Source of the DNA: Escherichia phage vB_Eco_F25
Strand: one strand, 5' to 3'
Length of the DNA stretch: 64,000 nt
Sequence record: OP870144.1
Shown: in pieces, positions 52,136 through 64,000 of the stretch
Layout of the letters: every line of letters begins with the position of its first letter
How positions within the stretch are numbered: position 1 is the first letter of the stretch
Position numbers and translations under genes: made by a program
Notes under the pieces: generated by a model
What the model was told of the DNA's origin: nothing
Database searches by the model: none
Seen by the model: the letters and a program-made list of their open reading frames with translations, nothing else

Positions 52136-52143
52136 TATAAATA
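52136..52143 (+). promoter_or_regulatory. late promoter TATAAATA for gene 34
   Basis: Exact motif 35 nt upstream of gene 34 ATG. Confidence 0.7.
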
Positions 52144-52177: not shown

Positions 52178-55100
52178 ATGGCCGAGATTAAAAGAAAGTT
52201 CAGAGCAGAAGACGGTCTGGACGCAGGTGGTGATAAAATAATCAACGTAGCTTTAGCTGATCGTACCGTAGGAACTGACGGTGTAAACGTTGATTACTTA
52301 ATTCAAGAAAACACAGTTCAACAATATGATCCAACTCGTGGATATTTAAAAGATTTTGTAATCATTTATGATAACCGCTTTTGGGCTGCAATAAATGATA
52401 TTCCAAAACCAGCAGGAGCTTTTAATAGCGTACGATGGAGAGCGTTACGCACTGATGCAAACTGGACAACTGTTTCGTCAGGACCTTATCAATTAAAATC
52501 AGGCGAATCGATTTCAGTTAACACCGCAGCGGGTAATGACATTACATTTACTTTGCCATCTTCTCCAATTGATGGTGATACTATCGTTCTCCAAGATATT
52601 GGAGGAAAACCTGGAGTTAACCAGGTTTTAATTACAGCTCCGGTACAAAGCATTGTAAACTTTAGAGGTCAACAAGTACGCTCAGTACTAATGACTCATC
52701 CAAAATCACAGATAGTTTTAATTTTTAGTAATCGTCTGTGGCAAATGTATGTTGCTGATTATAGCAGAGAAGCGGCAGTTGTAACGCCAGCGAGTCTTTA
52801 TCAAGCGCAATCAAACGATTTTATCGTGCGTAGATTTACTTCTGCTTCAGCAATTAATATTAAACTTCCTAGATTTGCTAATCATGGGGATATTATTAAT
52901 TTTGTTGATTTAGATAAATTAAATCCGTTATATCATACTATCGTTACTACATACGATGAAACGACTTCAGTACAAGAAGTTGGAACTCATTCCATTGAAG
53001 GCCGTACATCTATTGATGGTTTCTTAATGTTTGATGATAATGAGAAATTGTGGAGATTATTTGACGGGGATAGTAAAGCACGTTTACGCATTATAACAAC
53101 TAATTCAAACATCCGTCCAAATGAAGAAGTCATGGTATTTGGCGCGAATAATGGAACAACTCAAACGATTGAACTTCAGCTTCCAACTGATATTTCTATC
53201 GGTGATACTGTTAAGATTTCCATGAATTACATGAGAAAAGGACAAACAGTTAAAATCAAAGCTGCCGGTGAAGATAAAATTGCTTCTTCAGTTCAATTGT
53301 TGCAATTTCCAAAACGTTCAGAATACCCACCTGAAACTAAATGGGTGACTGTTCAAGAATTAGTTTTTAATGGCGAAACCAATTATGTTCCAGTTTTACA
53401 GCTTGCTTATATCGAAGATTCCGATGGAAAATATTGGGTTGTACAGCAAAACGTTCCAACTGTAGAAAGAGTAGACTCTTTAAATAATTCTACTAGAGCA
53501 AGATTAGGTGTAATTGCATTAGCTACACAGGCTCAAGCTAATGCAGATTTAGAAAATTCTCCACAAAAAGAATTGGCAATTACTCCAGAAACGTTAGCTA
53601 ATCGTACTGCTACAGAAACTCGTAGAGGTATTGCAAGAATAGCAACAACTGCGCAAGTAAACCAGGATACCACATTCTCTTTTGCAGATGACCTTATCAT
53701 CACTCCTAAAAAGTTGAATGAAAGAACTGCTACAGAAACTCGCAGAGGTGTCGCAGAAATTGCTACGCAACAGGAAACTAATACAGGTACTGATGATACT
53801 ACAATCATTACTCCTAAAAAGCTTCAAGCTCGCCAAGGTTCTGAATCATTATCTGGTATTGTAACTTTTGTATCTACTGCAGGTGCTACTCCGGCTTCTA
53901 GCCGTGAATTAAATGGTACGAATGTTTATAATAAAAACACTAATAACTTAGTTGTTTCACCTAAAGCCTTGGATCAGTATAAAGCTACTCCAACACAGCA
54001 AGGTGCGGTAATTTTAGCAGTTGAAAGTGAAGTAATTGCTGGACAAAGTCAAGAAGGATGGGCAAATGCGGTTGTAACGCCAGAAACGTTACATAAAAAG
54101 ACATCAACTGATGGAAGAATTGGTTTAATTGAAATTGCTACTCAAAGTGAAGTTAATACAGGAACTGATTATACTCGTGCAGTCACTCCTAAAACTTTAA
54201 ATGACCGTAGAGCAACTGAAAGTTTAAGTGGTATAGCTGAAATTGCTACACAAGTTGAATTCGACGCAGGCGTCGACGATACTCGTATCTCTACACCATT
54301 AAAAATTAAAACTAGATTTAATAGTACTGATCGTACTTCTGTTGTTGCTCTATCTGGATTAGTTGAATCAGGAACTCTCTGGGACCATTATACCCTTAAT
54401 ATTCTTGAAGCAAATGAGACACAACGTGGTACACTTCGTGTGGCTACACAAGTTGAAGCTGCTGCTGGAAAATTAGATAATGTTTTAATAACTCCTAAAA
54501 AGCTTTTAGGTACTAAATCTACCGAATCACAAGAAGGTGTTATTAAAGTTGCAACTCAGTCTGAAACTGTGGCTGGAACGTCAGCGAACACTGCTGTATC
54601 TCCAAAAAATTTAAAATGGATTGTACAGAGTGAACCTACCTGGGCAGCTACTACTGCGATAAGAGGTTTTGTTAAAACTTCATCTGGTTCAATTACATTT
54701 GTCGGTAATGATACAGTCGGTTCTACCCAAGATTTAGAACTGTATGAGAAAAATAGCTATGCAGTATCACCATACGAATTAAACCGTGTATTAGCAAATT
54801 ATTTGCCATTAAAAGCAAAAGCTGCAGATAGTAATTTATTGGATGGTCTAGATTCATCTCAGTTCATTCGTAGGGATATTGCGCAGACGGTTAATGGTTC
54901 ACTAACCTTAACTCAACAAACGAATCTGAGTGCCCCTCTTGTATCATCTAGTACTGCTACGTTCGGTGGATCAGTTTCAGCAAATAGTACATTAACTATT
55001 TCTAATACTGGAACAGCAACTCGATTGATTTTTGAGAAAGGACCTCAAACTGGAACAAACCCAGCCCAAACGATGACTGTTAGAGTGTGGGGAAATCAAT

Positions 55101-56047
55101 TTAGTGGGGAATTAGATACAACGCGTTCTACCGTATTTGAAGTTAGTGATGAAACATCTAGTCATTTTTATTCTCAGCGCAATAAAGCCGGAAATATAAC
55201 ATTTAATATCAACGGTACAGTAACACCGATAAATGTTAATGCTTCAGGAACATTGAATGCAAATGGAGTAGCAACATTTGGTAATTCAGTCACTGCAACT
55301 GGTGAAATTATTTCTCGAAGCGCAAATGCTTTCCGTGCTATTAACGGAAATTATGGTTTCATTGTTCGCAATGATGGATCAGTAACGAATTTTATGCTTA
55401 CTGCATCGGGTGATCAGACTGGTGGATTTAATGGATTACGTCCTTTGGCTATTAATAATGCATCTGGTCAAGTAACGATTGGTGAAAGCTTAATCATCGC
55501 CAAAGGTGCTACTATAAATTCTGGTGGTTTAACTGTTAATTCGAGAATTCGTTCTCAAGGTACTAAAACTTCTGATTTATATACCCGTGCGCCAACATCT
55601 GATACTGTAGGATTCTGGTCAATTGATATTAATGATTCAGCTACTTATAACCAGTTCCCAGGTTATTTTAAAATGGTTGAAAAAACTAATGAAGTGACTG
55701 GTCTTCCATATTTAGAACGTGGCGAAGAAGTTAAATCTCCTGGTACATTGACTCAGTTTGGTAACACACTTGATTCGCTTTACCAAGATTGGATTACTTA
55801 TCCAACAACTCCAGAAGCGCGTACCACTCGTTGGACCCGCACATGGCAGAAAACCAAAAATTCTTGGTCAAGTTTTGTTCAGGTATTTGATGGAGGTAAC
55901 CCTCCTCAACCGTCTGATATCGGTGCTTTACCATCTGATAATGCTACAATGGGTAATCTTACTATTCGTGATTTCTTACGAATTGGTAATGTTCGCATTA
56001 TTCCTGACCCAGTGAATAAAACTGTTAAATTTGAATGGGTTGAATAA
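52178..56047 (+). CDS. 34: long tail fibre proximal subunit gp34
   Basis: 1289-aa ORF, T4 gp34 length; internal repeated motifs; late promoter upstream. Confidence 0.95.
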   Translation: MAEIKRKFRAEDGLDAGGDKIINVALADRTVGTDGVNVDYLIQENTVQQYDPTRGYLKDFVIIYDNRFWAAINDIPKPAGAFNSVRWRALRTDANWTTVSSGPYQLKSGESISVNTAAGNDITFTLPSSPIDGDTIVLQDIGGKPGVNQVLITAPVQSIVNFRGQQVRSVLMTHPKSQIVLIFSNRLWQMYVADYSREAAVVTPASLYQAQSNDFIVRRFTSASAINIKLPRFANHGDIINFVDLDKLNPLYHTIVTTYDETTSVQEVGTHSIEGRTSIDGFLMFDDNEKLWRLFDGDSKARLRIITTNSNIRPNEEVMVFGANNGTTQTIELQLPTDISIGDTVKISMNYMRKGQTVKIKAAGEDKIASSVQLLQFPKRSEYPPETKWVTVQELVFNGETNYVPVLQLAYIEDSDGKYWVVQQNVPTVERVDSLNNSTRARLGVIALATQAQANADLENSPQKELAITPETLANRTATETRRGIARIATTAQVNQDTTFSFADDLIITPKKLNERTATETRRGVAEIATQQETNTGTDDTTIITPKKLQARQGSESLSGIVTFVSTAGATPASSRELNGTNVYNKNTNNLVVSPKALDQYKATPTQQGAVILAVESEVIAGQSQEGWANAVVTPETLHKKTSTDGRIGLIEIATQSEVNTGTDYTRAVTPKTLNDRRATESLSGIAEIATQVEFDAGVDDTRISTPLKIKTRFNSTDRTSVVALSGLVESGTLWDHYTLNILEANETQRGTLRVATQVEAAAGKLDNVLITPKKLLGTKSTESQEGVIKVATQSETVAGTSANTAVSPKNLKWIVQSEPTWAATTAIRGFVKTSSGSITFVGNDTVGSTQDLELYEKNSYAVSPYELNRVLANYLPLKAKAADSNLLDGLDSSQFIRRDIAQTVNGSLTLTQQTNLSAPLVSSSTATFGGSVSANSTLTISNTGTATRLIFEKGPQTGTNPAQTMTVRVWGNQFSGELDTTRSTVFEVSDETSSHFYSQRNKAGNITFNINGTVTPINVNASGTLNANGVATFGNSVTATGEIISRSANAFRAINGNYGFIVRNDGSVTNFMLTASGDQTGGFNGLRPLAINNASGQVTIGESLIIAKGATINSGGLTVNSRIRSQGTKTSDLYTRAPTSDTVGFWSIDINDSATYNQFPGYFKMVEKTNEVTGLPYLERGEEVKSPGTLTQFGNTLDSLYQDWITYPTTPEARTTRWTRTWQKTKNSWSSFVQVFDGGNPPQPSDIGALPSDNATMGNLTIRDFLRIGNVRIIPDPVNKTVKFEWVE
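53606..53749 (+). repeat. in-frame direct repeats inside gene 34 encoding recurring fibre motif (RTATETRRG-[IV]A-[RE]IAT)
   Basis: 24-nt ACTGCTACAGAAACTCG[TC]AGAGGT occurs at 53606 and 53726 (120 nt apart); related peptide motifs recur through about 54620. Confidence 0.7.
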
Positions 56048-56055
56048 GAGGTATT

Positions 56056-57171
56056 ATGGAAAAATTTATGGCAGAGTTTGGACAAGGATATGTCCAAACG
56101 CCATTTTTATCGGAAAGTAATTCAGTAAGATATAAAATAAGTATAGCGGGTTCTTGCCCGCTTTCTACCGCAGGGCCTTATGTTAAATTTCAAGATAATC
56201 CTGTAGGAAGTCAAACATTTAGTGCAGGTCTTCATTTAAGAGTTTTTGACCCTTCCACGGGAGCATTGGTTGATAGTAAGTCATATGTTTTTTCTACTTC
56301 AAATGATACAACATCTGCTGCTTTTGTTAGTTTCATGAATTCTTTTTCAAGCAATAGACTTGTTGCCATATTAACTAGCGGAAAGGTTAATTTTCCTCCT
56401 GAAGTAGTATCTTGGTTAAGAACGGCAGGAACATCTGCTTTTCCATCTGATTCTTTATTGTCAAGATTTGACGTATCATATGCTGCCTTTTACACTTCTT
56501 CTAAAAGAGCTATCGCACTAGAGCATGTTAAACTGAGTAACAGAAAAAGCACAGATGACTATCAAACTATATTAGACGTAGTATTTGATAGTTTAGAAGA
56601 TGTTGGAGCGACAGGATTTCCTAAAAGAACATATGAAAGCGTTGAGCAATTTATGTCAGCTGTTGGTGGAACTAATAACGAAATTGCACGTCTACCTACA
56701 GCATCTGCAATAAGTAAACTTTCTGACTATAATTTAATTCCTGGAGATGTTCTTTATCTTAAAGCACAACTATATGCTGATGCTGATTTATTAGCGTTGG
56801 GAACTACTAATATTTCAATTCGTTTTTATAATGCGTCGAATGGATATATTTCCTCTACCCAAGCTGAGTTTACTGGGCAAGCTGGGTCTTGGGAGTTAAA
56901 GGAAGATTATGTAGTTGTTCCTGAAAATGCAGTAGGATTTACGATATACGCACAGAGAACTGCACAAGCGGGTCAAGGTGGTATGAGAAATTTAAGCTTT
57001 TCTGAAGTGTCAAGAAATGGTGGCATTTCAAAACCTGCTGAATTTGGCGTTAATGGCATTCGAGTTAATTATATCTGCGAATCTGCTTCACCTCCGGATA
57101 TAATGGTACTTCCTACACAAGCATCGTCTAAAACTGGTAAAGTGTTTGGGCAAGAATTTAGAGAAGTTTAA
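56056..57171 (+). CDS. 35: long tail fibre hinge (knee) protein gp35
   Basis: 371-aa ORF, T4 gp35-like sequence. Confidence 0.92.
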   Translation: MEKFMAEFGQGYVQTPFLSESNSVRYKISIAGSCPLSTAGPYVKFQDNPVGSQTFSAGLHLRVFDPSTGALVDSKSYVFSTSNDTTSAAFVSFMNSFSSNRLVAILTSGKVNFPPEVVSWLRTAGTSAFPSDSLLSRFDVSYAAFYTSSKRAIALEHVKLSNRKSTDDYQTILDVVFDSLEDVGATGFPKRTYESVEQFMSAVGGTNNEIARLPTASAISKLSDYNLIPGDVLYLKAQLYADADLLALGTTNISIRFYNASNGYISSTQAEFTGQAGSWELKEDYVVVPENAVGFTIYAQRTAQAGQGGMRNLSFSEVSRNGGISKPAEFGVNGIRVNYICESASPPDIMVLPTQASSKTGKVFGQEFREV

Positions 57172-57202: not shown

Positions 57203-57210
57203 TATAAATA
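57203..57210 (+). promoter_or_regulatory. late promoter TATAAATA for gene 36
   Basis: Exact motif following gene 35 terminator hairpin, 24 nt upstream of gene 36 ATG. Confidence 0.7.
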
Positions 57211-57233
57211 CTATTAAAATAAAGGGGCATACA

Positions 57234-57890
57234 ATGGCTGATTTAAAAGTAGGTTCAACAACTGGAGGCTCTGTCATTTGGCATCAAGGAAATTTTCCAT
57301 TGAATCCAGCCGGTGACGATGTACTCTATAAATCATTTAAAATATATTCAGAATATAATAAACCACAAGCTGCTGATAACGATTTCGTTTCTAAAGCTAA
57401 TGGTGGTACATATTTAAATAAAGTAATTTTTAATAAAGGAATGACTGTTCCTGGTGCTGGGTCAGGTGACAACGGTATTTTTGCCGGTCCTGGTGATAAT
57501 GCTACATATGATACTACAAATATGGATATTGTTTCATGGTATGGTATCGGCTTTAAATCATCACAAGGGGCAGCAGGTAGAACTGTAGTAATTAACACAC
57601 GAAACGGAGATATTAGCTCAAAGGGTGTAATTGAAGCATCACAAATACGCGCAACTTCGTTATCACCAGTAAATAATTATGACCTTACGAGAAAAGATTA
57701 TGTTGATGGAGCAATAAATATTGTTACAACAAATGCAAACTCTAGAGTATTACGCTCTGGAGACACTATGATAGGAAATTTAACTGCGCCAAACCTTTTT
57801 TCACAGAATCCTGCATCTCAACCCTCGCATGTTCCGCGATTTGACCAAATCGTAATTAAGGATTCTGTTCAAGATTTCGGCTATTATTAA
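57234..57890 (+). CDS. 36: long tail fibre distal connector gp36
   Basis: 218-aa ORF following terminator hairpin and TATAAATA. Confidence 0.9.
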   Translation: MADLKVGSTTGGSVIWHQGNFPLNPAGDDVLYKSFKIYSEYNKPQAADNDFVSKANGGTYLNKVIFNKGMTVPGAGSGDNGIFAGPGDNATYDTTNMDIVSWYGIGFKSSQGAAGRTVVINTRNGDISSKGVIEASQIRATSLSPVNNYDLTRKDYVDGAINIVTTNANSRVLRSGDTMIGNLTAPNLFSQNPASQPSHVPRFDQIVIKDSVQDFGYY

Positions 57891-57898
57891 GAGGACTT

Positions 57899-60800
57899 AT
57901 GGCTACTTTAAAACAAATACAATTTAAAAGAAGCAAAACGGCAGGTCAACGTCCAGCTGCTTCAGTATTAGCCGAAGGTGAATTGGCTATAAACTTAAAA
58001 GACCGTGTACTTTTTACTAAAGATGACCAGGGAAATATTATTGATTTAGGTTTTGCTAAAGGCGGTAGTATTGACGGGAATGTTATTCATAAAGGCAATT
58101 ATAACCAAACTGGAGATTATACTTTAAACGGTACATTCACCCAGACTGGTAATTTTAATTTAACCGGTATTGCTCGAGTAACTCGTGATATTATTGCTGC
58201 TGGGCAGATTATGACTGAAGGCGGAGAACTTATTACAAAAAGTTCAGGTACATCACATGTTCGTTTTCATGATTCAGCTGACCGTGAACGTGGAATCATT
58301 TTTTCTCCTGCTAATGATGGATTAACTACACAAGTAATTAACATCAGAGTTCAAGATTACAAAGCTGGTTCAGAAAACACTTTCGCTTTTAATGGAAATG
58401 GTTTGTTTTCTTCACCAGAAGTTTTTGGGTGGAAATCTGTATCAACTCCGGTAATTTATACCAATAAAGTTATCACCAATAAAAAGGTTAAAGATGATTA
58501 TGACATCTATTCGATGGCAGACAATGTTCCATTATCTGAAAGCACTACTGCTATTAATCATCTTCGTGTTATGCGTAATGCAGTTGGTTCTGGTATTTTC
58601 CATGAAGTTAAAGATAATGATGGAATAACATGGTATAGTGGAGATGGATTAGATGCTTATCTGTGGTCATTTACCTGGAGCGGCGGAATTAAATCAAGCC
58701 ACTCAATTTCTATCGGTTTAACACCCGGACCTAAGGATTACTCAATATTAGGACCGTCTAGTATCGCTTTAGGAGATAATGATACTGGATTTAAATGGCA
58801 TCAAGACGGATATTATTTCAGTGTTAATAATGGCACAAAAACGTTTTTATTTAGCCCTAGCGAAACAACTAGCCTAAGAAAATTTGTAGCTGGGTATTCT
58901 ACTAATGGAACCGATTTAACTACTCCTCCGACTGAAAACTATGCTCTTGCTACTGTCGTGACATATCACGACAATAACGCGTTTGGAGATGGTCAGACTC
59001 TTTTAGGATATTATCAAGGCGGTAACTATCATCATTATTTCCGCGGCAAGGGCACTACAAACATTAATACTCACGGAGGGTTATTAGTTACTCCTGGTAA
59101 TATTGATGTTATTGGCGGTTCTGTTAATATCGATGGTAGAAATAATAATTCAACTTTAATGTTTAAAGGCTATACCATAGGTCAAAGTTCCGTTGATAAT
59201 ATGTATATAGCTGTTTGGGGAAATACTTTTACTAATCCAAGCGAAGGCACCCGTAAAAATGTCATGGAAATTTCTGATGATATTGGATGGATGCATTATA
59301 TTCAACGTAATAAAGATAATACGGTTGAAGCCGTATTAAATGGTCAACAAACAATTAATGAAAATATTATTGCGAAAAAGGATATTTGGGTTGACCGAGC
59401 AGTTCATACCATTGGCGAAATCACTACAAATGCTGTTAATGGTCTTCGTATTTGGAACAATGATTACGGAGTTATTTTTAGACGCTCAGAAGAAAGTCTT
59501 CATATTATTCCTACAGCATTTGGCGAAGGAGAAACCGGTGATATTGGGCCTTTACGTCCTCTCAGCGTAGCTTTAAATTCCGGTAAAGTTACTATTCCAG
59601 ATTTACAGTCAAGTTATAATACGTTCGCTGCAAATGGTTATATTAAATTTGCTGGTCATGGGGCTGGTGCCGGTGGTTATGATATTCAGTATTCACAAGC
59701 TGCTCCTATTTTCCAAGAAATCGATGATGCTGCTGTAAGCAAATATTATCCTATTGTTAAACAGAAGTTTTTAAACGGTAAAGCTGTCTGGTCTTTAGGT
59801 ACTGAAATTAATTCAGGTACATTTGTTTTACATCATCTAAAAGAAGATGGTTCACAAGGCCATACATCAAGATTTAATGCTGATGGTACAGTTAATTTCC
59901 CCGATAACGTTCAAGTCGGCGGCGGTGAAGCTACTATTGCTCGTAATGGTAATATTTTCTCAGATATTTGGAAATCGTTTACTTCTGCGGGAGAAACCAC
60001 AAATATTCGCGATGCAATAGCTACTCGTGTTTCTAAAGAAGGCGACACGATGACTGGTAAATTGACTTTATCAGCAGGCAATGATGCTCTCGTTTTAACT
60101 GCGGGCGAAGGTGCTTCGTCACATATCCGTAGTGATGTAGGTGGTACAAATAACTGGTATATAGGCAAAGGTGGCGGCGACAACGGTCTAGGTTTTTACA
60201 GTTACATTACACAGGGTGGTGTATACATAACAAATAACGGCGAAATATCGCTTTCTCCTCAAGGTCAAGGAACATTTAATTTTAATAGAGACCGCCTTCA
60301 TATAAACGGTACACAATGGGTTGCGCACCAAGCTGGTGATTGGGGAAACCAATGGCGACAAGAAGCGCCGATATTTGTAGATTTTGGCAATGTCGGTAAT
60401 GATAGTTATTACCCGATTATCAAAGGAAAATCTGGTATTACTAATGAAGGATACATATCGGGTGTTGATTTTGGTATGCGACGCACTACTAACCAATGGG
60501 CTCAGGCTATTATCCGTGTTGGTAACCAGGAAAATGGTTCTGACCCACAAGCTATCTATGAATTTCACCACAATGGAGTTCTGTATGCTCCTAATATGGT
60601 TCAAGCTGGAGCAAGATTATCAGCTGGCGGTGGTGATCCGGTATGGCAAGGCGCATGCGTTGTTATTGGTGATAATGATACTGGATTAGTTCATGGCGGT
60701 GATGGACGAATTAACATGGTTGCAAATGGAGTGCATATTGCTTCATGGTCTTCATCCCATCATGAACACACTGGGCTTTGGGCCACCGACGGCGCGTTTT

Positions 60801-61228
60801 GGACTGAAACCGGAAGAGCTATTATTTCATTTGGACATTTAATTCAACAAAATGACAGCTATTCAACATATGTCCGCGATGTTTATGTCCGCTCTGATAT
60901 TCGTGTTAAAAAGGACCTAGTTAAATTTGAAAATGCTTCACAAACACTTTCAAAAATTAACGGTTACACTTATATGCAGAAGCGAGGCCTAGATGAAGAA
61001 GGCAATCAGAAATGGGAACCTAACGCCGGTTTGATAGCTCAAGAAGTTCAAGCTATTTTGCCTGAATTAGTTGAAGGTGACCCTGATGGCGAAGCTTTAC
61101 TTCGTTTAAACTATAACGGTGTAATTGGTTTAAATACAGCTGCAATCAATGAGCATACTGCAGAAATTGCGGAACTTAAATCAGAAATTGAAGAACTTAA
61201 AGCATTAGTTAAATCATTGTTAAAATAA
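57899..61228 (+). CDS. 37: long tail fibre distal subunit gp37 (T2/T6-type with C-terminal intramolecular chaperone-like domain)
   Basis: 1109-aa ORF; conserved N-terminus [13 protein letters not shown]; C-terminal SDIRVKKDL...[15 protein letters not shown] segment resembles S74-type auto-cleaving chaperone domain. Confidence 0.92.
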
Positions 61229-61233
61229 TAAGA

Positions 61234-61247
61234 GGGGCTTCGGCCCC
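61234..61247 (+). other. GC hairpin between genes 37 and 38
   Basis: GGGGC-TTCG-GCCCC followed by TT and gene 38 SD. Confidence 0.5.
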
Positions 61248-61259
61248 TTGGAGGTTTAT

Positions 61260-62033
61260 ATGGCAGTAGCAGGACCGTGGGTAGGATCGTCTGCAGTAGT
61301 TAATACAGGACAAAATTGGATGGGTGGTGCCGCGCAGAGATTGAGAATGGGAATTCCGTTTTGGATGAGTAATATGATAGGTCGATCTGTTGAAGTAATT
61401 CACACACTTGGAGCGGACCATAACTTCAATGGTCAATGGTTCCGAGATAGATGTTTTGAGGCAGGTAGTACACCTATAGTGTTTAATATCACTGGAGATT
61501 TAGTATCATATTCTAGAGACGTTCCTTTATTCTTCATGTACGGAGATACACCGAATGAATATGTTCAACTGAATATACATGGTGTAACGATGTATGGACG
61601 TGGCGGTAATGGCGGTAGCAATAGTCCTGGCTCAGCTGGAGGTCATTGTATTCAAAACGATATTGGTGGGAGACTAAGAATCAATAATGGCGGAGCTATT
61701 GCAGGCGGTGGCGGCGGCGGTGGCGGCGGTAACTACGGTAGACTATCATTTGGTGGTGGTGGTGGTCGCCCATTCGGTGCTGGCGGGTCTTCCTCTCATA
61801 TGAGTTCTGGTGCAACTGCTGGCTCCATTTCCGCTCCGGGTGCAGGATCTGCTGGTGAGGGGTCTCTTTGGGTATATACAGGCGGGAATGGCGGTGAAGT
61901 TGGCTCAGCAGGAGGTAGATGTAATATTCATGGGAACGGTACAGAATATAACGGTGGTGCTGCTGGTTATGCCGTCATAGGGTCTACACCGACATGGCAA
62001 AACGTTGGAGCAATATATGGTCCAAGAGTATAA
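61260..62033 (+). CDS. 38: receptor-recognising adhesin gp38 (T2/T6-type, glycine-rich motifs)
   Basis: 257 aa from ATG 61260 with GGAGG SD (track ORF starts at TTG 61248); several poly-Gly stretches separating variable segments. Confidence 0.88.
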
Positions 62034-62063
62034 TTTGAATAAATATCCTTAAAAGGAGGGTCT

Positions 62064-62720
62064 ATGGCAGCACCTAGAATATCATTTTCGCCCTCTGATA
62101 TTCTGTTGGGTGTTCTAGATCGCTTGTTCAAAGATAACGCTACCGGGAAGGTTCTTGCTTCCCGAGTAGCTGTCGTAATTCTTTTGTTTATAATGGCGAT
62201 TGTTTGGTATAGGGGAGATAGTTTCTTTGAGTACTATAAGCAATCAAAGTATGAAACATACAGTGAAATTATTGAAAAGGAAAGAAATGCACGCTTTGAA
62301 TCTGTCGCCCTGGAACAACTCCAGATAGTTCATATATCATCTGAGGCAGACTTTAGTGCGGTGTATTCTTTCCGCCCTAAAAACTTAAACTATTTTGTTG
62401 ATATTATAGCATATGAAGGAAAATTACCTTCAACAATAAGCGAAAAATCACTTGGAGGATATCCTGTTGATAAAACTATGGATGAATATACAGTTCATTT
62501 AAATGGACGTCATTATTATTCCAACTCAAAATTTGCTTTTTTACCAACTAAAAAGCCTACTCCCGAAATAAACTACATGTACAGTTGTCCATATTTTAAT
62601 TTGGATAATATCTATGCTGGAACGATAACCATGTACTGGTATAGAAATGATCATATAAGTAATGACCGCCTTGAATCAATATGTTCTCAGGCGGCCAGAA
62701 TATTAGGAAGGGCTAAATAA
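62064..62720 (+). CDS. t: holin T
   Basis: 218-aa ORF, single N-terminal TMD (VAVVILLFIMAIVWY) and large periplasmic domain; T4 T length. Confidence 0.92.
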   Translation: MAAPRISFSPSDILLGVLDRLFKDNATGKVLASRVAVVILLFIMAIVWYRGDSFFEYYKQSKYETYSEIIEKERNARFESVALEQLQIVHISSEADFSAVYSFRPKNLNYFVDIIAYEGKLPSTISEKSLGGYPVDKTMDEYTVHLNGRHYYSNSKFAFLPTKKPTPEINYMYSCPYFNLDNIYAGTITMYWYRNDHISNDRLESICSQAARILGRAK

Positions 62721-62993
62721 TTATTTGTTTGTATACATCTCTAGATATCGATATACACCCTCAAAACCCTCGTTGAATTCGTCGATGAGGGTTTTCTTAT
62801 CTTCTTGAGTTAATTCAGAAACAATTTTACGGAATGAATTCTGATTTAACTTTCTACCTTCATGCGTTACTCCAATCTCATTCAGAAATGCAATAAAATT
62901 AGCACGATTCTCAACAATATCTTCTCTGGAAAATTTAATCAAAATAGATGCAACAGTAATAATTTCACGAACTGTATCAATGTTTTTATTCAT
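62721..62993 (-). CDS. asiA: anti-sigma-70 factor AsiA
   Basis: 90-aa ORF, T4 AsiA sequence (MNKNIDTVREIITVASILIKF...). Confidence 0.92.
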   Translation of the reverse strand: MNKNIDTVREIITVASILIKFSREDIVENRANFIAFLNEIGVTHEGRKLNQNSFRKIVSELTQEDKKTLIDEFNEGFEGVYRYLEMYTNK

Positions 62994-63005
62994 TAACTAC
63001 ACCAC

Positions 63006-63158
63006 TCAATTAGTTGACTTTATTATAATATCATCAGACGCTTGATTTGTAAACTGGTCTGTGTTATTTTCTTCAAAAATTTTTTCTACGAATTCCTTGA
63101 ACGACTCACGTTCCTGAGCTACATTATGCTCGATTACCTTTTCAAGATTATGACTCAT
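63006..63158 (-). CDS. hypothetical small acidic protein
   Basis: 50-aa ORF found manually; ATG overlaps stop of upstream ORF (ATGA coupling). Confidence 0.4.
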   Translation of the reverse strand: MSHNLEKVIEHNVAQERESFKEFVEKIFEENNTDQFTNQASDDIIIKSTN

Positions 63159-63433
63159 TCAAAATAATCTTCAATTTCGTAATCATGGATATAAATCATT
63201 ATAGTTTTTAATACATCATCAATACTTTTTCCTGGAGCTGGAATTACGTAAAAATATCCCGCCTTTGAGTTATCTTTATAAGTTCCAACCAAGAAATCAT
63301 TATTTTCAAGATGTAGTTCTTCAACTAATTCATCGACAATTGAGTGGTATAAATTTGGTAGAAACTTATATAGCTTTTCTAGAATGTCAATTTTGATTGT
63401 ATATTGAACCACAGATTGAGAATCAATAATCAT
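63155..63433 (-). CDS. arn: probable Arn-like small acidic protein (anti-restriction DNA mimic)
   Basis: 92-aa acidic ORF next to asiA, the T4 arn position; identity by synteny and size only. Confidence 0.65.
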   Translation of the reverse strand: MIIDSQSVVQYTIKIDILEKLYKFLPNLYHSIVDELVEELHLENNDFLVGTYKDNSKAGYFYVIPAPGKSIDDVLKTIMIYIHDYEIEDYFE

Positions 63434-63516
63434 AGACCTTCCCCTTATGTTTCTGTTTGCGATTAGATTCTTTAAACGCTTTCTTCTTATCTTTATGAAC
63501 AGAAGCTTTATTAAAA

Positions 63517-63735
63517 TTATGTTTTGCGACTAAATTGTTCATAGTGCTGAATTACCTCTCTTAAACATTTGCATGTGAATGAAAACTTTTTAGCTACACC
63601 ACATTCAAATATATGTTCTCTTAAATCACGTGTGTCAGTATATCCCATCTTAACAATAAAATACCGTATTAAATTTTTATCTTTATCATTGAGAGAATTA
63701 AAATAGTCAGATTTTGAATTAATTTCCCTGGCCAA
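63517..63735 (-). CDS. hypothetical protein
   Basis: 72-aa ORF with Cys pairs; overlaps next ORF. Confidence 0.4.
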   Translation of the reverse strand: MAREINSKSDYFNSLNDKDKNLIRYFIVKMGYTDTRDLREHIFECGVAKKFSFTCKCLREVIQHYEQFSRKT

Positions 63736-63982
63736 ATTGAATCACCTTCAGTTGGCGTTTTAGCTCTTTTATCATCTCTTCATTCATCGCAATATAAAGA
63801 TCGCGTAAAGCAGGTTTTAGCATTCCATTTACTGGAGAACTAAATGGACATACATAATCTTTTCCTACAAGCTTTTTAGTGAATTCCATATCACAGAACT
63901 TAAATCCCGGCTCATTGGTATAAATTCCCCAATTAGTTGACATCATTTTATTAGCATATTCCAGTGCCTGAATTTGATTCAT
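63719..63982 (-). CDS. hypothetical protein
   Basis: 87-aa ORF co-oriented with asiA block. Confidence 0.45.
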   Translation of the reverse strand: MNQIQALEYANKMMSTNWGIYTNEPGFKFCDMEFTKKLVGKDYVCPFSSPVNGMLKPALRDLYIAMNEEMIKELKRQLKVIQFGQGN

Positions 63983-64000
63983 AATTCCATCAATTTGAAA

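Follow-up and report, generated by a model that had tools for sequence, protein, structure and literature searches.

We consider it very likely that gene 38 of Escherichia phage vB_Eco_F25 encodes a T2/T6-type tail-fibre adhesin, gp38, which caps the fibre tip and most probably represents an OmpA-binding "type 2" allele. The gene is located in the stretch of 64,000 nucleotides that we analyzed (sequence record OP870144.1), which is called the window below. In most T-even phages gp38 fixes the primary porin receptor, so that the receptor can be predicted from the sequence of the allele alone. A prediction of OmpA, probably limited to some of the OmpA loop variants, is useful for composing cocktails of phages with non-overlapping receptors, and knowledge of the allele is also useful for adhesin swaps that retarget a phage.

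The protein has already been deposited and annotated. It is identical over 257 of 257 residues to WBF79806.1, which was deposited as "tail fiber adhesin" of Escherichia phage vB_Eco_F25, and the family has already been characterized by swap experiments, by deletion analysis and in two crystal structures. For vB_Eco_F25 itself, a literature search gave neither a publication nor receptor data. What the present analysis adds is the receptor prediction (OmpA, type 2 allele) for one phage and the history of module swapping in its gene; it adds no new principle.

Identification of the gene 38 product

The open reading frame of gene 38 occupies positions 61260-62033 of the + strand, starting at the ATG at 61260 and ending with the stop codon at 62031-62033, and encodes 257 amino acids. 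The ORF-finder listing gave a TTG start at 61248. We rejected this start and adopted the ATG at 61260, because a ribosome-binding site, GGAGG (61250-61254, + strand), can be read from the sequence five bases 5' of the ATG and because all homologues start with MAV or MAI.

Two Pfam models matched gp38 over their full lengths. The model GP38 (PF05268, "Phage tail fibre adhesin Gp38") matched aa 45-257 with profile positions 1-218 of 218 (1.4e-69; 234.7 bits against a cut-off of 25 bits), and the model Gp38_N (PF21721) matched aa 1-40 with profile positions 1-40 of 40 (2.8e-21; 75.7 bits). The gp38 sequences of T2 and T6, which we took from their genomes, matched the same two models. The sequence-only reading of this DNA had proposed the architecture of a T2/T6-type adhesin, and the matches bear this proposal out. 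In addition, gp38 matched phrog_2056 ("tail fiber protein; host specificity") at 2.5e-106, the receptor-binding domain of PP01 gp38 (PDB 9V85) at 1.6e-79 and, over aa 1-254, full-length gp38 of the Salmonella phage S16, which was crystallized together with the tip of gp37 (PDB 6F45_D), at 1.8e-55. A single-sequence AlphaFold2 model of gp38 was too low in confidence for use (mean pLDDT 30.1, pTM 0.18).

Thus each defining feature of the family that can be tested on a sequence was found, and at this level the gene 38 product is identified as a T2/T6-type gp38 adhesin. By homology, gp38 would be present in the virion, at the tip of the fibre.

Glycine-rich motifs and hypervariable segments

Glycine accounts for 24.9% of the whole gp38 protein and for 35.2% of aa 113-257, and 11 GG pairs are present. 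The longest run, GGGGGGGGG, consists of nine glycines at aa 149-157 (nt 61704-61730), which gives the exact position of the run that had been noticed at about 61700-61730 in a 257-residue product. A second run, GGGGG, occupies aa 165-169 (nt 61752-61766). When the protein was shuffled with its own composition, which is itself already extreme, a run of at least nine glycines appeared in 43 of 100,000 shuffles.

In a tblastn search against the phage collection, most matches of gene 38 were broken in two and reached 69% coverage, which is likely due to low-complexity masking of the glycine runs. Because the matches were split, we made our own MAFFT alignments of the fetched loci. These contained gp38 of the window and those of T2, T6, Ox2, M1, RB32, RB27, FL15, FL12, FL18, FL20, Ac3, Pu-Krd-SF6, PP01 and S16, and later also those of EV240, RB49 and IME340. 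The sequence-only reading had suggested an alignment with T2, T6, K3, Ox2 and similar phages; a record search for K3 gave only its gene 37 (X04747), and K3 gp38 is absent from the comparison. The glycine motifs of gp38 matched column for column across 14 other gp38 adhesins, and the segments between them varied. Therefore, the segmented architecture of gp38, in which glycine-rich and variable parts alternate, is real.

The motifs and segments were named after the scheme of Trojet 2011 (PMC3157838), and loops A to E follow the definitions given for PP01. In the C-terminal half, gp38 fits this scheme with five glycine-rich motifs (GRMs) that separate four hypervariable segments (HVSs), all on the + strand. 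GRM1 (aa 113-119, GRGGNGG; 61596-61616) was assigned from the alignment and the scheme. It is followed by HVS1 (aa 120-147; 61617-61700), whose variable tip, SNSPGS, is the counterpart of loop-A in PP01 and whose remainder is conserved in coliphages. GRM2 (aa 148-157, AGGGGGGGGG; 61701-61730) holds the nine-glycine run, which aligns with the S16 residues 151-GGGGGGGG-158, and this S16 run forms polyglycine-II helix 3 (PMC6851490). HVS2, or loop-B (aa 158-164, NYGRLSF; 61731-61751), is of the short kind that characterizes the OmpA type 2 allele, with Y159 standing for the R of EV240, FL12, FL18, FL20 and RB49. GRM3 (aa 165-176; 61752-61787) contains R170, the equivalent of R172 of type 2 adhesins. 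HVS3 (aa 177-207; 61788-61880) comprises loop-C, SSSHMSS, and loop-D, with the sub-allele residues A198, W204 and V205. GRM4 (aa 208-219; 61881-61916) was placed by the alignment. HVS4, or loop-E (aa 220-231; 61917-61952), has I223 where other OmpA-typed adhesins carry T. Finally, GRM5 and the conserved C-terminal end, again placed by the alignment, cover aa 232-257 (61953-62030); a conserved C-terminal motif of gp38 was reported in Trojet 2011 (PMC3157838).

Conservation differed between the two kinds of element. GRM1 and GRM3 of gp38 were 86-100% identical to those of coliphage adhesins, with the exceptions of RB32 and Ox2 (50-58% in GRM1), whereas the HVS loops showed 0-30% identity between receptor classes. 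Specificity is determined by the variable stretches that the glycine motifs separate (Trojet 2011, PMC3157838). When gp38 of EV240 from HVS2 onwards was put into phage CM8, the receptor changed from Tsx to OmpA (2026 preprint, bioRxiv 10.64898/2026.04.02.716166). The proposal that the variable segments choose the outer-membrane protein is supported.

Prediction of the receptor

The specificity region of the gene was used by itself for a nucleotide search (61600-61990). The top matches were Pu-Krd-SF1, 2, 5, 6 and 7, with 99% identity. These were followed by IME340 (97.2%), by JE01, LYE-01, SP1, UoN_LDJ77_1, OES_C-3 and HMD-9 (95-97%), and by ST2 (92.5%), FL12 (91.0%), T4_ev240, that is, EV240 (90.0%), and Ac3 (89%). 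FL18 (87%), FL20 (85%) and RB49/JSE/Phi1 (80-82%) were more distant, and the T6-like genes showed about 77% identity.

At the protein level we took aa 113-257 as the specificity domain and counted differences out of 145-150 positions. Pu-Krd-SF6, whose receptor is untyped, showed 0 differences in 145 and a loop identity of 100%. IME340, which uses OmpA, differed at 4 of 145. The other OmpA phages were EV240 with 11 differences, FL12 with 11 (loop identity 83%), FL20 with 19 (79%), FL18 with 22 (83%) and RB49 with 32. The Tsx phages RB27 and T6 differed at 29 and 32 positions, respectively, each with a loop identity of 53%, and T2, PP01, S16, Ox2, RB32 and M1, which use various receptors, had loop identities of 9-32%. 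All six experimentally typed phages in the specificity cluster of gp38 (IME340, FL12, FL18, FL20, EV240 and RB49) use OmpA.

The OmpA dependence of these phages comes from several kinds of experiment. In the case of IME340, resistant mutants map to ompA, deletion of ompA abolishes both infection and adsorption, and complementation restores both (PMC6499177). FL12, FL18 and FL20 were shown to depend on OmpA by deletion of ompA (Lutz 2025, PMC12032242), and EV240 and RB49 by genome-wide RB-TnSeq screens (bioRxiv 10.64898/2026.04.02.716166). The same preprint reports that a single HVS3 substitution, Q206L, toggles RB51/RB68 between OmpF and OmpW, which shows that small differences can matter and is the main caveat to the OmpA call for gp38.

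From the near-identity of gp38 to the adhesins of OmpA-dependent phages, we predict that OmpA is the likely receptor of gp38. By the same comparisons, its allele is most probably one of the type 2 OmpA alleles, which have a narrow range. The type 2 adhesins of FL12, FL18 and FL20 have a narrow host range and accept only the OmpA variants 1, 3 and 4 (Lutz 2025, PMC12032242). Their contacts with OmpA, R172, A189 and A253, were obtained in silico only, with R172 modelled as touching OmpA loop 1 (Lutz 2025, PMC12032242). In gp38 these residues correspond to R170, A187 and A251, and all three are also present in IME340, FL12 and FL20.

The differences from the typed OmpA adhesins were then considered residue by residue. 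Compared with IME340, gp38 differs only by S182G, S183A, S189T and A198V, all of which lie within loop C, within loop D or in the stretch that joins the two. Y159, W204, V205 and I223 form a sub-allele common to gp38, Pu-Krd-SF6 and IME340, whereas R, S, A and T, respectively, occupy these positions in the remaining typed OmpA adhesins. A literature search for receptor data on other carriers of this sub-allele gave IME340 only.

Such residues would be the cause if gp38 were an adhesin for a receptor other than OmpA, for which Tsx, another porin, or a protein together with LPS are candidates. Y159, A198, W204, V205, I223, S182, S183 and S189 all distinguish gp38 from typed OmpA adhesins, and the T6-like Tsx adhesins, which share I223, are the next-closest group, with specificity domains 75-81% identical. 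Moreover, single substitutions in HVS3 can change the porin, as seen with OmpF/OmpW in RB51/RB68 (bioRxiv 10.64898/2026.04.02.716166), and the range of T6-like adhesins widens to Yersinia or to OmpA with a small number of changes in HVS2 and HVS3 (Trojet 2011, PMC3157838). However, IME340 carries Y159, W204, V205 and I223 and nevertheless depends on OmpA by knockout and complementation, which leaves four residues, and both the Tsx-type HVS2 (YYSPFSQMRLT) and the Tsx-type deletion in loop-D are absent from gp38. We therefore think that a receptor other than OmpA is quite unlikely, and OmpA remains our preferred prediction.

The sequence-only reading had also regarded this locus as the main determinant of host range. 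This holds for the primary porin receptor and does not hold beyond it: host defences likewise restrict the host range. In addition, there is a second receptor, located in the LPS core, which is determined by the short tail fibre gp12 (bioRxiv 10.64898/2026.04.02.716166).

Mosaic structure of gene 38

The similarity of gene 38 to other genes changed along its length. Over nt 1-120, which encode the attachment domain, it was 88% identical to RB27/Ac3 and 57% identical to IME340. Over nt 469-774, that is, from HVS2 to the end, the identity to IME340 was 95.5-100%, and that to RB27 was 56-67%, with 95% over the last 84 nt. The type of the intergenic hairpin in front of the gene went together with the N-terminal module.

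Judging from these identities, gene 38 is a recombinant of known modules. This corresponds to the modular exchange by way of conserved G-rich and beta-helix sequences that has been described before (Trojet 2011, PMC3157838). The overall identity of gp38 was 98.4% with Pu-Krd-SF6, 89.7% with RB27 and 88.3% with FL18; because the modules recombine, such overall values are a poor guide to the receptor.

We also considered that the allele-specific residues (S182, S183, S189 and A198 in comparison with IME340; Y159, W204, V205 and I223 in comparison with the other typed adhesins) shift the set of OmpA loop variants recognized or add a second receptor, and we regard this as unlikely. If it were true, the host range would be unlike that of the characterized type 2 OmpA phages, and the combination of an RB27/Ac3-type N-terminal module with an IME340-type specificity domain would represent a natural retargeting of another fibre shaft to OmpA.

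Genomic context and transcription

Gene 38 lies in the long-tail-fibre cluster, which comprises gene 34 (52178-56047), gene 35 (56056-57171), gene 36 (57234-57890; PF03903) and gene 37 (57899-61228, + strand). The last of these encodes the distal subunit of the long tail fibre, a protein of 1109 aa that is the partner capped by gp38. Downstream of gene 38 is its conserved neighbour, the holin gene t (62064-62720, + strand; PF11031, 8.4e-118), so that the order 34-35-36-37-38-t is the canonical one of T-even long-tail-fibre clusters; asiA and arn are found further downstream on the opposite strand. In a comparison spanning 24 kb, many Tequatrovirus genomes showed 94-97% identity to the window; no identical genome was present in the phage collection.

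Between the stop codon of gene 37 and the ribosome-binding site of gene 38 there is an intercistronic hairpin, GAGGGGC-UUCG-GCCCCUU, with a stem of 7 bp (61232-61249, + strand). Equivalent hairpins were present in 13 other T-even phages. A motif scan for the T4-type late-promoter motif TATAAATA gave 19 occurrences in the window against 8.6 expected. One of them precedes gene 34 (52136), and another lies upstream of gene 36 (57203-57210, + strand). No such motif was found on the + strand over 57211-61259, and none was found directly upstream of gene 38, so that an independent promoter for gene 38 is not supported. By analogy with the late promoters of T4, the motif at 57203 is likely to be the promoter for genes 36, 37 and 38. 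Since the motif is missing directly before gene 38, this gene probably shares a transcript with genes 36 and 37.

The gene name and the position after gene 37 are also those of the T4 assembly chaperone, and they are the only features that would favor a gp38 of the T4 type, which stays outside the virion and leaves receptor recognition to the C-terminus of gp37. The gp37 encoded in the window does not fit such an arrangement. Its last 192 residues (aa 918-1109) matched S16 gp37 from the gp37-gp38 crystal complex (6F45_A) at 7.6e-45, and it contains a Peptidase_S74 domain ("chaperone of endosialidase", PF13884) at aa 999-1058 (4.4e-12). That is, the gp37 tip is, as far as its sequence tells, of the type on which a gp38 adhesin sits as a cap. 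Furthermore, a BLASTP comparison of gp38 with T4 gp38 gave a best E value of 1.9 over 12 residues, T4 gp38 matched neither PF05268 nor PF21721, and T4's own sequence record describes the two "gp38" proteins as unrelated. We therefore excluded identity with the T4-type chaperone, an explanation that can hardly be true, in agreement with the sequence-only reading, which had set the protein apart from T4 and had named a full-length match to T4-type chaperones as evidence against its own proposal.

Domain arrangement and proposed mode of action

The N-terminal attachment domain (aa 1-40; 61260-61379, + strand), which is covered by the full-length Gp38_N match, contains W7, W20 and W35. These residues align with W7, W20 and W36 of S16 gp38, whose N-terminal helices dock on the gp37 trimer by means of three conserved tryptophans inserted in pockets (6F45; PMC6851490). 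The tryptophans are conserved in gp38, and docking on the gp37 trimer through W7, W20 and W35 would be expected by analogy.

The next segment (aa 41-112; 61380-61595, + strand) is conserved, and in the alignment with gp38 of PP01 and S16 its counterpart is their beta-helix domain. It was 89-99% identical in amino acids to gp38s of coliphages with differing receptors, with the exceptions of T6 (81%) and T2 (40%).

In S16 gp38, the GRMs form polyglycine-II helices in a three-layer sandwich, with five HVS loops at the distal end (PMC6851490). Homology to two crystal structures suggests the same polyglycine-II sandwich fold for gp38. The nine-glycine run is encoded by a (GGC/GGT)n repeat at 61704-61729, which could suggest a low-complexity or repeat artefact without a structural role, but the motif positions are conserved over 14 adhesins from three phage genera, the motifs form polyglycine-II helices in the crystal structures of S16 and PP01, and no viable T6 recombinants without GRM2, GRM3 or GRM4 could be obtained, from which the authors concluded that adsorption depends on the three motifs (Trojet 2011, PMC3157838), so that this explanation is practically negligible.

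Taken together, we propose the following mode of action for the gp38 adhesin, based on homology with the crystal structures of S16 and PP01. Residues 1-40 would dock onto gp37 via W7, W20 and W35, and aa 41-112 together with the C-terminal end would form a beta-helix. The glycine-rich motifs would form polyglycine-II helices, and the "sandwich" into which these pack would display the five variable loops at its distal end. These loops may then bind an outer-membrane protein, most probably OmpA.

Comparison with known systems

Besides the identical deposited protein, a close known adhesin is gp38 of Pu-Krd-SF6, which is 98.4% identical to that of the window overall and 100% identical in the specificity domain. 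The gp38 of IME340 shares Y159, W204, V205 and I223 and has G182, A183, T189 and V198; unlike the gene in the window, it is connected to another type of N-terminal attachment module (57% nt identity over nt 1-120) and to another type of intergenic hairpin.

The gp38 proteins of FL12, FL18, FL20, EV240 and RB49 have the same set of HVSs as gp38 of the window, including the short HVS2 (N-x-G-R/K-L) and the loop-D pattern GEGSL..YTGG. They differ from it by R159, S204, A205 and T223 in place of Y, W, V and I, and by 11-32 differences in the specificity domain as a whole. Owing to the residues at 159, 204, 205 and 223, the set of OmpA loop variants recognized by gp38 might differ from that of these five phages.

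The Tsx-binding adhesins of T6, RB27 and FL15 belong to the same family and have the same architecture, with GRMs and HVS1 75-100% identical to those of gp38 and GRM4 the lowest. RB27 in addition agrees with it in the type of N-terminal module (88% nt identity) and in the intergenic hairpin. In contrast, T6, RB27 and FL15 have an HVS2 with five additional residues (YYSPFSQMRLT), and four residues are deleted from their loop-D; the loop identity is 53%, and the receptor is another one.

Family, domain order and the GRM scaffold are also shared with gp38 of T2 (FadL/OmpF), PP01 (OmpC; 9V85), S16 (Salmonella OmpC; 6F45), Ox2, M1 and RB32, whereas the loops of T2, PP01, S16, Ox2, M1 and RB32 are only 9-32% identical to those of gp38. 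Ox2, RB32 and M1 also use OmpA, although their HVS sets are unrelated to that of gp38. OmpA binding is therefore found in several unrelated alleles.

Finally, T4 gp38, an assembly chaperone of 183 aa, has in common with gp38 of the window its gene name, its site 3' of gene 37 and a similar preceding hairpin. Its sequence is unrelated and it is not present in the virion; in T4, the receptor is bound by the tip of gp37.

Mosaic composition of gene 38 and possible recombination in the fibre shaft

Gene 38 (61260-62033, plus strand), which encodes the T2/T6-type adhesin gp38, was compared with the gp38 loci of phages RB27, IME340 and Ac3. As judged by these alignments, the gene is a mosaic. Its first 120 nt belong to the RB27/Ac3 type, with 88% identity versus 57% to IME340, and the hairpin upstream of the gene is also of this type. 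From the second hypervariable segment (HVS2) onwards, the gene is of the IME340 type with 95.5-100% identity, and its identity to RB27 through HVS2-HVS3 is 56-67%. Because the gene is such a mosaic, identity calculated over its whole length is a misleading indicator of the receptor.

We also compared 57234-64000 with the corresponding locus of Pu-Krd-SF6, the source of the closest gp38 relative. The identity was uneven along this region. It was 94.4% from about nt 60270, in the last third of gene 37 (57899-61228), through gene 38 and gene t (62064-62720) and beyond, but only 84-87%, with short non-aligning stretches, in gene 36 (57234-57890) and the 5' two-thirds of gene 37. This unevenness suggests that further recombination occurred inside the fibre shaft.

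Annotation of the gp38 start in FL18

In the FL18 locus (PP400780.1; gene at locus positions 301-1074), the deposited adhesin CDS begins at locus position 361, which is 60 nt past the conserved ATG at which all other gp38 genes start. Judging from this position, the annotated FL18 adhesin is probably truncated, with 20 codons missing at its N-terminus. The cluster containing the gp38 of the window has a 237-aa ENA representative, which looks similarly truncated.

Domains of gp35 and gp37

Residues 58-127 of gp35 (gene 56056-57171) matched the Pfam family ILEI (PF15711, 'Interleukin-like EMT inducer') with an E-value of 3.5e-7 and 31.1 bits, the cut-off being 27. gp35 is the hinge connector of the long tail fibre; such a resemblance is unexpected in a phage fibre protein. 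The C-terminal part of gp37 carries a Peptidase_S74 'chaperone of endosialidase' domain (aa 999-1058; 60893-61072), a domain type that fits a self-cleaving intramolecular chaperone aiding fibre trimerisation. The last 192 residues of gp37 align with the gp37 of Salmonella phage S16 in the crystal structure 6F45.

Late-promoter motifs and the hairpin between genes 37 and 38

The window contains 19 copies of the late-promoter motif TATAAATA, where 8.6 were expected; none of 100 shuffles gave as many. Two copies lie on the plus strand just upstream of gene 34 (motif 52136-52143; gene 52178-56047) and gene 36 (motif 57203-57210), and the motif search of the window found none directly in front of gene 38.

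The interval separating the gene 37 stop codon from the gene 38 ribosome-binding site contains a hairpin whose 7-bp stem is capped by a C(UUCG)G tetraloop (61232-61249; -17.8 kcal/mol, z = -2.2 in a fold of the 61-nt context). The hairpin is not a typical intrinsic terminator, because it is not followed by a T-run. Equivalent hairpins with other stems and loops occupy the same position in T2, T6, T4, Ox2, M1, RB32, FL12, EV240 and IME340; thus, the structure of this intercistronic element is conserved and its sequence is not. The hairpin resembles the intercistronic UUCG hairpins of T4 mRNAs, which are known for their stability.
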